Shown here: one piece after another, positions 4,096 through 5,237 of the stretch
How positions within the stretch are numbered: the stretch's first letter is position 1
Layout: every line of letters starts with the position of its first letter
Source of the DNA: Eubacteriaceae bacterium ES3
GTDB taxonomy: Bacteria; Bacillota; Clostridia; Eubacteriales; Eubacteriaceae
DNA: 32,000 nt
Direction: 5' to 3'
Assembly: GCA_030586155.1 (NCBI GenBank)
Contig: CP130741.1
Location: forward strand, 396,680-428,679
Program-made: the position numbers and the translations under genes
The notes under the pieces: model-generated
Database searches by the model: none
Seen by the model: only the letters and a program-made list of their open reading frames with translations
What the model was told of the DNA's origin: nothing

Positions 4096-4404
4096 ATGAG
4101 TGAATCAACCTTTATGGGTGTGGACCGGGAGAAAATTGACTGGTGTCCAACCATTGATTATGATAAATGCAACGATTGTATGGATTGTGTAGAGTTTTGC
4201 CCACATAAGGTTTTTGAGGTGAGAGAAAATGAAACGCCAAAACTAATTGTCAAAAATCCTAAGAACTGTGTGGTTTTTTGTCGTGCCTGTTCTAAAACGT
4301 GTGGATTGGATGCGTTGTCATTCCCTGATAAAAATGAGACAACAAGAAAAATCAAGGCAACTCGTAAAGCGGAAAAGGCAGCTAAGAAAGAGGCGGAAGA
4401 ATGA
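4096..4404 (+). CDS. 4Fe-4S dicluster ferredoxin-domain protein with a Lys/Glu-rich tail
   Basis: It has CNDCMDCVEFCP (CxxCxxCxxxCP) and a second, atypically spaced motif, CVVFCRACSKTC (C-x3-C-x2-C-x3-C). The start lies 2 nt after the upstream stop. Confidence 0.8.
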   Translation: MSESTFMGVDREKIDWCPTIDYDKCNDCMDCVEFCPHKVFEVRENETPKLIVKNPKNCVVFCRACSKTCGLDALSFPDKNETTRKIKATRKAEKAAKKEAEE

Positions 4405-5237
4405 AATGTATACTGCCTTGCAACGGACTTGATAAATGTGCCGGATTGGTTTCTGCCCAGACTGCTATCGAACTGAGTAAACAGGAAGGTTGGGAGCTGG
4501 TTTGTCCGGTACTCCTAAATCAGAATAAAAGCCCTTATGAAAAGGTGCTTTCCCAGGGGGAGCTGGTAGTGCTTGATGGGTGTAATACCCGGTGTGCCAG
4601 CAAATTGGTGCAAAGCCTGGATTTAAAGTTTAAAGATAAGCTGAATGTCAGCGAGGTGGCCAAGTCTCTTGATGTGAAGCTGGGCAAGGAATTGGCTGTA
4701 AATGATTCAACCAGGGAAGTTCAAAAGGCCTTGATTGAAAAACTGACTCAGGCTGAGGATAAAAAGGAAACTACGAGCTTTGAAATGGGCTCTATCGACT
4801 ATGATTCCTTCATGGAAGGCAAGTTTGTTTTCAAAGTGCCTAAAGAAGGCTTTCATTTTAATGAAAATGACTGCTGGATTTATGTATCGGGAAAGACAGC
4901 CAGAATTGGTGTTAGCGATTATGTTCAGCAGAATCTTTCAGATATTCTCTATGTGGATTCGCCAGAAATTGGAGATGAAGTTGAGCAGTTTGATGATTGC
5001 GGCAGTATCGAATCGGGCAAGGCGGTTTTTGAGATCATTTCACCGGTATCCGGAACAGTAATCGCGGTAAATGAGGAACTCCAGGATTCACCTGAATTGA
5101 TCAATGAAGCTCCTTACGAAAAGGGCTGGTTGGTGGAACTTGAATTAACTGATGAACTTCAGGATGATTTGGAGATTCTCCATGATGGACCATCCTATTT
5201 TGAATATCTGAAAAAGAAGGTGGCAGAAGATGTCTAA
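4401..5237 (+). CDS. Fusion protein: N-terminal DGC (putative Zn/4-Cys) domain and C-terminal glycine-cleavage H-protein-like lipoyl-carrier domain
   Basis: The N-terminus has ILPCNG...VCPVLL...[11 protein letters not shown], the four-Cys DGC pattern. The C-terminal [75 protein letters not shown] aligns by eye with E. coli GcvH (VGITEHAQ...[34 protein letters not shown].GGW). The lipoyl-Lys position is retained at K207, codon 5019-5021. The start overlaps the upstream stop (ATGA). Confidence 0.75.
   Translation: [278 protein letters not shown]

Follow-up and report, generated by a model that had tools for sequence, protein, structure and literature searches.

The window analysed here, a 32-kb stretch of DNA from Eubacteriaceae bacterium ES3, contains an open reading frame (ORF; 4401-5237(+), ATG start, 278 amino acids (aa)) that encodes a DGC domain fused to a lipoyl domain of the GcvH type, GcvH being the H-protein of glycine cleavage. 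An earlier note on this DNA had concentrated on the fusion protein. The fusion is real, but the functional unit is a five-gene iron-sulfur (Fe-S)/thiol block, in the order HdrA-N-like protein, ferredoxin, DGC-GcvH, DGC and DGC, and not the fusion alone. Linkage of this block to arsenic-resistance (ars) islands is systematic, and its gene content and neighbourhood suggest that lipoic acid is used here to handle arsenic. The genes of the block and the parts of the fusion gene are as follows:

3653..3681 (+): promoter-like site TTGACT-17-TACAAT in the 119-bp gap upstream of the block, with 10 of 12 positions matching in a consensus scan; a pattern match only, the count of such sites in the region being close to shuffle expectation
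3722..4093 (+): gene 1, stand-alone homolog of the HdrA N-terminal [4Fe-4S] domain, 123 aa (phmmer, NCBIfam)
4096..4404 (+): gene 2, 2x[4Fe-4S] ferredoxin, 102 aa (Fer4 family matches)
4401..5237 (+): gene 3, DGC-GcvH fusion, 278 aa (profile, PDB and model evidence)
4401..4676 (+): DGC domain of the fusion, residues 1-92, alpha/beta fold (PF08859, invariant columns, model secondary structure)
4419-4421, 4503-4505, 4581-4583 and 4593-4595 (+): codons of the invariant DGC cysteines C7, C35, C61 and C65
4677..4784 (+): linker, residues 93-128, one helix and a disordered stretch (model, identity by segment)
4785..4856 (+): family-specific beta-hairpin ahead of the GcvH core, residues 129-152 (conserved columns, model)
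4857..5216 (+): GcvH-type lipoyl domain, residues 153-272 (Pfam, NCBIfam, PDB sequence and fold matches)
5019..5021 (+): AAG codon of K207, the predicted lipoyl-lysine (alignment, codon check, conservation)
5230..5628 (+): gene 4, stand-alone DGC protein, 132 aa (Pfam DGC, E 1e-13)
5628..6023 (+): gene 5, stand-alone DGC protein, 131 aa (Pfam DGC, E 5e-20)

The five genes are tightly packed: genes 1 and 2 lie 2 nucleotides (nt) apart, and the following pairs overlap, genes 2 and 3 by 4 nt, genes 3 and 4 by 8 nt and genes 4 and 5 by 1 nt.

The fusion protein and its predicted lipoyl-lysine

Both halves of the fusion are recognized by Pfam, residues 4-89 as DGC (PF08859, E 7e-17) and residues 153-272 as GCV_H (PF01597, E 1.8e-33, 115.4 bits against a cutoff of 22.2). 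The protein also passes two NCBIfam models, the gcvH equivalog TIGR00527 narrowly (120.9 bits against a cutoff of 115.85) and NF002270 (125.5 against 117), so that the DGC-GcvH architecture proposed in the earlier note is borne out. In public annotation the protein is called either 'glycine cleavage system protein GcvH' or 'putative zinc-binding protein'. In the AlphaFold2 model the four invariant cysteines of the DGC domain (C7, C35, C61 and C65) lie at the C-terminal edge of the parallel sheet; a fifth, C13, is nearly invariant. The linker that follows is poorly conserved (median identity 24%), with a predicted local distance difference test score (pLDDT) below 50 at residues 118-124. The beta-hairpin ahead of the GcvH core, in which Y134, K141, F142, F144 and P147 are invariant, is N-terminal to the Pfam GCV_H span and shows at best a partial alignment to solved H-proteins.

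The lipoyl site had been assigned by eye, and a phmmer search of all PDB chains reproduces the pairing: the 17-residue stretch with K207 is aligned to 17 residues of Escherichia coli GcvH (3a8i_E), and Thermotoga maritima GcvH (2ka7/1zko) gives the equivalent alignment. Because these alignments to solved H-proteins pair the two residues, K207 occupies the position of the lipoyl-lysine. The AlphaFold2 model (pLDDT 88) places K207 in the turn that joins strands 199-205 and 209-213, and the modeled GcvH domain superposes on 3klr, 3a8i and 1onl with TM scores of 0.91-0.94 and root mean square deviations of 0.9-1.4 Å. Sequence and fold thus both put K207 at the hairpin tip, and the misaligned lysine that the note had regarded as fatal to its idea was not found. 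At the codon level, ATC GAA TCG GGC AAG encodes I-E-S-G-K, which confirms the reported replacement of the usual Val by Gly immediately before K207 (GGC AAG).

Conservation of the site was examined in 33 full-length fusions, defined by coverage in an exhaustive representative search and spanning 29-83% identity. K207 and the Glu at K-3 (E204) are kept in all 33, and the Gly at K+11 (G218) in 31. From work on bovine H-protein, the Glu at K-3 and the Gly at K+11 reportedly have a role in lipoylation. In a neighbour-joining tree, a crude one without bootstrap, the GcvH domains of 31 of the 33 fusions fall into one clan apart from 105 other H-protein representatives; ten short sequences, probably fragments or unfused relatives, are in the same clan. 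The clade is also marked by changes close to the lysine: Val at K-1 is replaced by Ser, Gly or Thr, Ser at K+3 by Phe or Val, and Tyr or Phe at K+6 by Ile or Leu. Judged by alignment, model and conservation, K207 of the fusion is most likely lipoylated.

The fusion shares with canonical GcvH (PF01597, TIGR00527) the same fold, with a core 35-58% identical to other H-proteins, the lipoyl-lysine at the hairpin tip, the Glu at K-3 and the Gly at K+11. Unlike the canonical protein, a stand-alone polypeptide of about 130 aa, it is a 278-aa fusion in which a DGC domain and a family-specific beta-hairpin precede the core, and it forms a separate subclade with altered flanks around the lysine. The genomic context also differs, since the fusion is never found beside gcvT or gcvP and is always part of an Fe-S/DGC block linked to ArsR. 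The earlier note had argued from the absence of gcvT and gcvP nearby that the fusion does not belong to the glycine cleavage system. In the window, no ORF of at least 90 aa has a GCV_T or GDC-P Pfam match, and there is no tblastn match to E. coli GcvT or GcvP at any coverage. We collected 89 loci in all (the window, 8 from genomes and 80 from a metagenome scan), of which 30, with at least 6 kb on both sides and fusions 47-81% identical to the query, form the census used below. GcvT and GcvP are near the fusion in none of these 30 and give no match in any of the 89 loci at any coverage, nor do GCV_T or GDC-P Pfam domains appear in the annotated neighbourhoods. A general association of the fusion with gcvT/gcvP, which would have spoken against the note, is thus not observed, and the absence of both proteins from the loci places the fusion outside the glycine cleavage system.

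The five-gene block and its neighbourhood

The order of the block is invariant in all 37 loci whose flanks extend 3 kb or more on each side, and the block is kept in members that are 30-36% identical to the query. Clustered at 90% identity, the family falls into more than 1000 protein clusters, and more than 430 metagenome loci are among the matches listed. Its hosts include Acetobacterium woodii, in which Awo_c22580 and the next four genes make up the block, Clostridium ljungdahlii, Eubacterium callanderi/limosum and C. sporogenes. Median identity is highest for gene 1 (81%) and the ferredoxin (75%), followed by the DGC proteins (52-56%) and the fusion (49.5%). The gene 1 product, publicly annotated as 'hypothetical' or 'HdrA-like polyferredoxin', matches HdrA (7bkb_A, residues 10-104) with an E value of 7e-5 in phmmer and the HdrA N-terminal region in NCBIfam with an E value of 1.6e-5; its cysteines C11, C13, C17, C48 and C71 are near-invariant in 64 sequences. 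All eight cysteines of the gene 2 ferredoxin are conserved at 100% in 71 sequences.

The conserved cysteines of the stand-alone DGC proteins are C9, C40, C66 and C70, plus C60, in gene 4 (72 sequences) and C11, C42, C68 and C72, plus C16, in gene 5, a paralog of gene 4 (hhalign E 9e-40) whose model has a pLDDT of 88.6 and a predicted TM score (pTM) of 0.83. All three DGC modules of the block score 61.8-72 bits against a cutoff of 27, and each has the four equivalent invariant cysteines, including those of the DGC motif. The ligand of these sites could be zinc, an Fe-S cluster, As(III) or a redox dithiol. Two relationships of the DGC domain were considered: homology to the HdrA-N-like protein is rejected (hhalign probability below 1%), and membership of the DsrE-like proteins, suggested by the Pfam description, is unsupported (no DsrE-family match even at E <= 10).

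Two loci show how the block varies. In L076 (Ga0209539_1001441) the fusion gene is apparently duplicated, since a second fusion-type gene lies directly upstream of a complete block; the order there is an ArsR gene on the opposite strand, then fusion, HdrA-N-like, ferredoxin, fusion, DGC, DGC and LplA on one strand. In L007, a contig of the Eubacterium callanderi type, the block and its ars genes adjoin conjugation genes (TrbL, PrgI, a TraG-like ATPase and CHAP/lysozyme), which suggests that this block is carried on an integrative conjugative element. The block had no tblastn match in the plasmid database PLSDB.

Genes for arsenic handling are found near the block in most loci. Within 6 kb, 29 of the 30 census loci and all 12 of the clusters that they form at 70% identity have an ArsR-family gene; within 10 kb, 25 loci and 11 of the 12 clusters have a structural ars gene (ArsC, Acr3, ArsA, ArsD, ArsP, ArsF or ArsG). 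Since a 20-kb segment drawn at random from a genome of 3-4 Mb that has a handful of ars genes would be expected to hold one only a few per cent of the time, the enrichment appears to be very large, by a rough expectation rather than a computed one. Of the 'ars/hgc neighbourhood' in which the earlier note had placed the fusion, the ars part is both real in the window, which encodes ArsP and ArsC, and systematic across loci. The hgc part is coincidental, because HgcA is linked to the block only in the window lineage and in one other locus, L070 (1 of the 30 well-flanked loci, or 2 of the 37).

About 24 of the 32 regulators nearest the block have CVC at the alpha-3 position of As(III)-responsive ArsR, which was located with R773 ArsR as a positional guide only, and seven have CC(Y/F)SGD. 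The five regulators that were scored match the generic metalloregulator model only and reach 29-57 bits against the cutoff of 155 for the persulfide sensor BigR.

Enzymes of lipoate metabolism are also found at the block. A flavoprotein of the dihydrolipoyl dehydrogenase (Lpd) type is near the block in 14 of the 30 loci, usually directly upstream on the same strand and, in some Acetobacterium loci, downstream beside arsA. The flavoproteins of Caloramator and Fusibacter score 493 and 506 bits against TIGR01350 (cutoff 408.8); their MerA scores of 336-341 do not reach that cutoff, and MerA is therefore not involved. Directly downstream of the block, 8 of the 30 loci encode a lipoate-protein ligase, mostly on the same strand and convergent in three; the Caloramator ligase (L008, 10739-11719) passes the LplA model TIGR00545 with 415 bits against 280. 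The layout in Caloramator sp. E03 is ArsP-ArsP-Lpd-block-LplA. The adjacent LplA and Lpd genes lend indirect support to lipoylation of the fusion and, together with the retained site, favour the view that its GcvH domain functions as a lipoyl carrier.

One group of loci has, between ArsR and the block, an ArsF-family gene (112 bits against 60) and a gene for the aromatic-arsenical efflux permease ArsG (312 against 200), followed by a gene for a rhodanese-like protein. The ArsF-family product is a lipoprotein that resembles thioredoxin and has a CxxC motif, whereas the membrane protein ArsG is of the CcdA/DsbD type (L051, 7731-9284; L006, 11093-12375; about one third of the loci). Together, ArsF and ArsG look like a transmembrane thiol-disulfide relay, and because they immediately adjoin the lipoyl/DGC block, the latter could be the cytoplasmic electron donor of that relay. 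In L006, from Fusibacter sp. 3D3 (BDHH01000002.1), the genes form an operon of the order ArsR-Lpd-block-IscA-like-ArsF/G-like. This strain reportedly grows on arsenate without ArrAB by an unexplained mechanism that has been tied to the cellular redox state (PMC9751042); its block is not mentioned in that paper or its supplement.

Other genes in the window

The block is flanked in the window by further Fe-S, transport, arsenic and mercury genes:

487..1026 (-): PF04060 Fe-S protein, 179 aa, paired with the TIGR01977 gene
1023..2177 (-): TIGR01977 cysteine desulfurase-family protein (459 bits against 377)
2550..3602 (+): radical SAM/SPASM protein just upstream of the block (TIGR04317, 333 bits against 380)
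6170..6376 (+): small ferredoxin, 68 aa, lineage-specific accessory gene with L004 as the only other locus
6377..7570 (+): MFS efflux-type transporter directly downstream (MFS within 10 kb in 8 of the 30 loci)
7602..8081 and 8030..8617 (+): split ArsP-family permease, two overlapping genes (PF03773 on both halves)
8698..9114 (-): LMWP-family ArsC-like arsenate reductase (PF01451)
9412-10509: second radical SAM protein, flanking hgc
10452-11126: TetR regulator, flanking hgc
11239..11508 (-): HgcB, an 89-aa 2x[4Fe-4S] ferredoxin ending in CDCC
11518..12678 (-): HgcA (452 bits against 275)
12738-13592: TM1586-type nitroreductase, flanking hgc

The two halves of the split ArsP both match the N-terminal half of PF03773 (positions 13-131 and 7-143 of 294). 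The same layout adjoins the block in L008, L028 and L029, is nearby in L080 and L086, and occurs also in L035; its recurrence across loci suggests a natural heterodimer and not a frameshift. The best NCBIfam matches of the ArsC-like protein are to models of thioredoxin-type arsenate reductases, below their cutoffs. The hgcA and hgcB genes form an intact mercury-methylation pair (11239-12678(-)).

The TIGR01977/PF04060 pair is transcribed opposite to the block. In the window and in L004 it lies upstream and is divergent, while in the Acetobacterium-type loci it is downstream and convergent; it is found also in L001, L007, L010, L011, L013 and L014. The TIGR01977 protein is related to the selenocysteine lyase SclA and scores below the SclA cutoff. 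The pair is lineage-specific, being found beside the block in Eubacteriaceae and Acetobacterium loci, often with an XdhC/YqeB-like gene nearby, and this hints at a dedicated sulfur/selenium mobilisation or Fe-S assembly function for the block. The nearest model of the radical SAM/SPASM protein, which it matches below cutoff, is the maturase of a tungsten-cofactor oxidoreductase. Its homologs recur in the ars islands of L004, L010, L011 and L016, in the last three of which, all of the Acetobacterium type, they lie between ArsR and ArsD, and the protein may be an ars-associated radical SAM enzyme.

At the far end of the window, 26066-31625(+) encodes a 1516-aa protein with a superfamily-1 helicase (AAA_11/AAA_12) and a C-terminal MTES_1575-type endonuclease-like domain, followed by an NYN-nuclease/LOTUS protein; the two may be a defence or nucleic-acid surveillance pair. 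The ORFs at 203-475(-) (90 aa) and 19398-20180(+) (260 aa) match no Pfam family. The former was considered as a candidate ArsR and is not one; it sits where relatives have other genes.

Candidate functions of the block and their implications

Among the closest counterparts of the fusion are GcvH-like proteins that work outside glycine cleavage. One is LbpA, the lipoate-binding protein of sHdr sulfur oxidation, whose partners are Hdr-like Fe-S proteins, sulfur transferases and a ligase of its own (Cao et al. 2018, PMC6067878; Tanabe et al. 2024, PMC11094781), and the sHdr-LbpA system is controlled by ArsR-type sensors of sulfane sulfur such as sHdrR, in which Cys50 and Cys116 are conserved (PMC12423496). 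Like LbpA, the fusion is encoded with Hdr-related Fe-S proteins, small Cys-rich proteins and sometimes its own lipoate ligase, under ArsR-family regulation. Unlike the LbpA system, the block in the inspected neighbourhoods has no sHdrA flavoprotein and no HdrB/CCG, only the stand-alone HdrA N-terminal-like domain; its small Cys proteins are DGC and not DsrE or TusA, its ligase is a standard LplA (TIGR00545), its hosts are strict anaerobes, and its neighbours are ars rather than sox or shdr genes. The GcvH-L protein (5a35) of the SirTM/macrodomain/LplA2 operon of Staphylococcus and Streptococcus is likewise a GcvH paralog devoted to a stress operon with its own ligase. It is a weaker structural match to the GcvH domain of the fusion (rank 22, 24% identical), and the block, unlike that operon, lacks sirtuin and macrodomain partners and shows no sign of a link to ADP-ribosylation.

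Two other kinds of system resemble the block in logic. The Lpd-DlaT(SucB)-AhpD-AhpC proteins of Mycobacterium tuberculosis, reportedly described by Bryk et al. in 2002, are said to form an NADH-driven thiol-reductant relay for detoxification. The common feature, a likeness of logic and not homology, is the path from NADH through Lpd and a protein-bound lipoyl arm to a Cys acceptor; the block differs in that its acceptors are DGC rather than AhpD/AhpC proteins, that it has additional, obligatory Fe-S subunits, and that its presumed substrate is an arsenical and not a peroxide. ArsD, the ArsT/ArsX thioredoxin system and ArsEFG are also ArsR-linked, Cys-based accessories that aid arsenical handling, and the block often has ArsD, ArsA, ArsF and ArsG close by. 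Unlike ArsD and the thioredoxin system, to which it is unrelated in sequence, the block combines a lipoyl cofactor with Fe-S proteins, a combination that we have not found described for any ars determinant.

We propose, with about an even chance of being right, that the block is an arsenic-responsive module, a cytoplasmic complex in which a lipoyl dithiol arm reduces or binds arsenicals at the Cys sites of the DGC modules. The translationally coupled genes would give a five-protein cytoplasmic complex with DGC-GcvH as its central subunit, and the cassette, as part of the arsenic-resistance islands of anaerobic Firmicutes, would be controlled by an ArsR repressor of the As(III) type. In loci with an Lpd gene, the arm would be kept in the dithiol form by NADH through the co-encoded dihydrolipoyl dehydrogenase. 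Alternatively, electrons from reduced ferredoxin could recharge it by way of the 2x[4Fe-4S] ferredoxin and the HdrA-N-like cluster, a route that would fit ferredoxin-centred anaerobes and acetogens. The swinging dihydrolipoyl arm on K207 would then supply the four-Cys sites of the three DGC modules with reducing equivalents, or carry chelated As(III) or organoarsenical(III) to them, so that pentavalent or thiol-bound arsenicals would be reduced or captured before being passed to efflux by ArsP, Acr3/ArsAD, ArsG or MFS transporters. Trivalent arsenicals have a classical high-affinity ligand in dihydrolipoamide; the arm itself may bind As(III) or Hg(II). A narrower version, in which the block is a lipoate-dependent, ferredoxin- and/or NADH-driven reductase (or reductive transformer) of arsenate or organoarsenicals with the arm as its catalytic dithiol, seems to us possible but rather doubtful; the block would then be an ars determinant of a new class, present in strict anaerobes, and a candidate for the ArrAB-independent arsenate metabolism of Fusibacter sp. 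3D3.

Several observations weigh against the proposed module. The ArsR/SmtB family is broad and includes sensors of As(III), Cd/Zn and sulfane sulfur, and because CVC occurs also in the Cd/Pb-sensing CadC, the regulators could, going by their sequences, be sensors of Cd or Pb. The 32 kb of the window encode no ArsR, Lpd or LplA; in L004, a relative 81% identical to the query, ArsR lies past the NifS/Fe-S pair, and the equivalent spot is at or beyond the left edge of the window. In 5 of the 30 loci the ArsR-family gene is unaccompanied by structural ars genes, and the roughly 4 kb around the divergent locus L094 are free of ars genes. With ArsC already encoded in many loci, the need for a further arsenate reductase is not obvious. 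The electron-carrier subunits are the most conserved, which fits redox catalysis without identifying the substrate. No in-frame TGA for selenocysteine, which would mark a redox-active Cys, was seen at a conserved Cys in 476 high-scoring segment pairs, whose sole internal stop is at the position of W243 in L023. The DGC fold has no solved relative (best Foldseek match in the PDB E 0.036, TM 0.42), and the annotation pipeline PGAP labels the DGC proteins 'putative zinc-binding'. Finally, searches of the open-access literature found no description of the block, of a function for PF08859 or of a lipoyl protein in arsenic resistance; the block is likewise not mentioned in the C. parabotulinum ars operon paper, in a survey of ArsA operons or in the sHdrR paper, nor did it surface in a search with A. 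woodii locus tags.

Other functions can be derived from the same genes. The block may be a passive As(III) sink or metallochaperone without redox catalysis, either a decoy that shields other thiol and lipoyl enzymes or an ArsD-like hand-off to pumps, in which Lpd only keeps the arm reduced. The linkage to arsenic islands, the co-occurrence with ArsD/ArsA, Acr3 and ArsP, the lipoyl site with twelve invariant cysteines across three DGC modules, and the established chelation of As(III) by dihydrolipoamide are all equally expected of such a sink; a stoichiometric sink is, however, costly compared with efflux, and it leaves the obligatory and most conserved ferredoxin and HdrA-N-like proteins (37 of 37 loci) unexplained, so that we regard it as unlikely. 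A sulfane-sulfur relay similar to sHdr-LbpA appears improbable. In such a relay the arm would receive persulfide sulfur from cysteine desulfurase or rhodanese and carry it among the DGC cysteines, detoxifying reactive sulfur or making thio-arsenicals or arsenic sulfides, and ArsR would sense sulfane sulfur; LbpA is indeed the closest non-glycine precedent of a GcvH-like protein (PMC6067878, PMC11094781, PMC12423496), and a TIGR01977 cysteine desulfurase (6 of 30 loci), an IscA-like protein (6 of 30) and a rhodanese-like protein (4 of 30) occur near the block. These sulfur-transfer genes are lineage-specific, however, whereas the ars genes are general; no inspected neighbourhood has HdrB/CCG or a full-length HdrA, the DGC domain lacks any DsrE-family match at E <= 10, and the regulators stay far below the BigR cutoff and mostly have the alpha-3 CVC rather than the N- and C-terminal Cys pair of SqrR/sHdrR.

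The block might also be a general module for thiol or soft-metal stress (Cd, Zn, Hg, Sb, disulfide or oxidative) that hitch-hikes in metal(loid)-resistance islands. CDF cation-efflux genes within 10 kb in 9 of the 30 loci, MFS genes in 8, the zinc-binding annotation of the DGC proteins, the CVC shared with CadC and the hgcAB pair of the window fit this idea, which we nevertheless consider to have little probability, given that arsenic-specific genes (ArsC, ArsD, ArsA, Acr3, ArsF and ArsG) dominate the neighbourhoods (25 of 30), that HgcA is linked to the block so rarely and that the adjacent flavoproteins score as Lpd and not as MerA. It is very unlikely that the fusion is an ordinary GcvH joined to a metal-binding domain, whether as the H-protein of glycine cleavage or of the reductive glycine pathway or as a lipoyl-relay donor of the Bacillus subtilis type. 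The narrow pass of TIGR00527, the public name and the use of glycine-cleavage enzymes by acetogens would be in keeping with it; set against these are the absence of GcvT and GcvP from all loci, the separate clan with its consistent changes near the lipoyl-lysine, the obligatory partners in the block and the near-universal linkage to ArsR.

If the proposed arsenic-responsive module is correct, a lipoylated protein with its own ligase and Lpd under an arsenic-type repressor would turn lipoic acid, the textbook cellular target of trivalent arsenic, into a tool for handling it. The fusion could be a GcvH-like lipoyl carrier recruited to a non-glycine system, as LbpA and GcvH-L were, and would thereby represent a third non-glycine role of GcvH-like proteins; the cassette to which it belongs, apparently undescribed in the open-access literature, could be a new class of ars determinant. 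It would also provide the first functional context for the DGC domain (PF08859) and for the stand-alone HdrA N-terminal-like Fe-S protein. The label 'glycine cleavage system protein GcvH', given by automatic annotation, is misleading when the metabolism of acetogens is reconstructed, for instance where the reductive glycine pathway is inferred. Because the family occurs in well-studied and genetically tractable anaerobes, the idea is directly testable, and it bears on how strict anaerobes that run on ferredoxin power the detoxification of arsenic.

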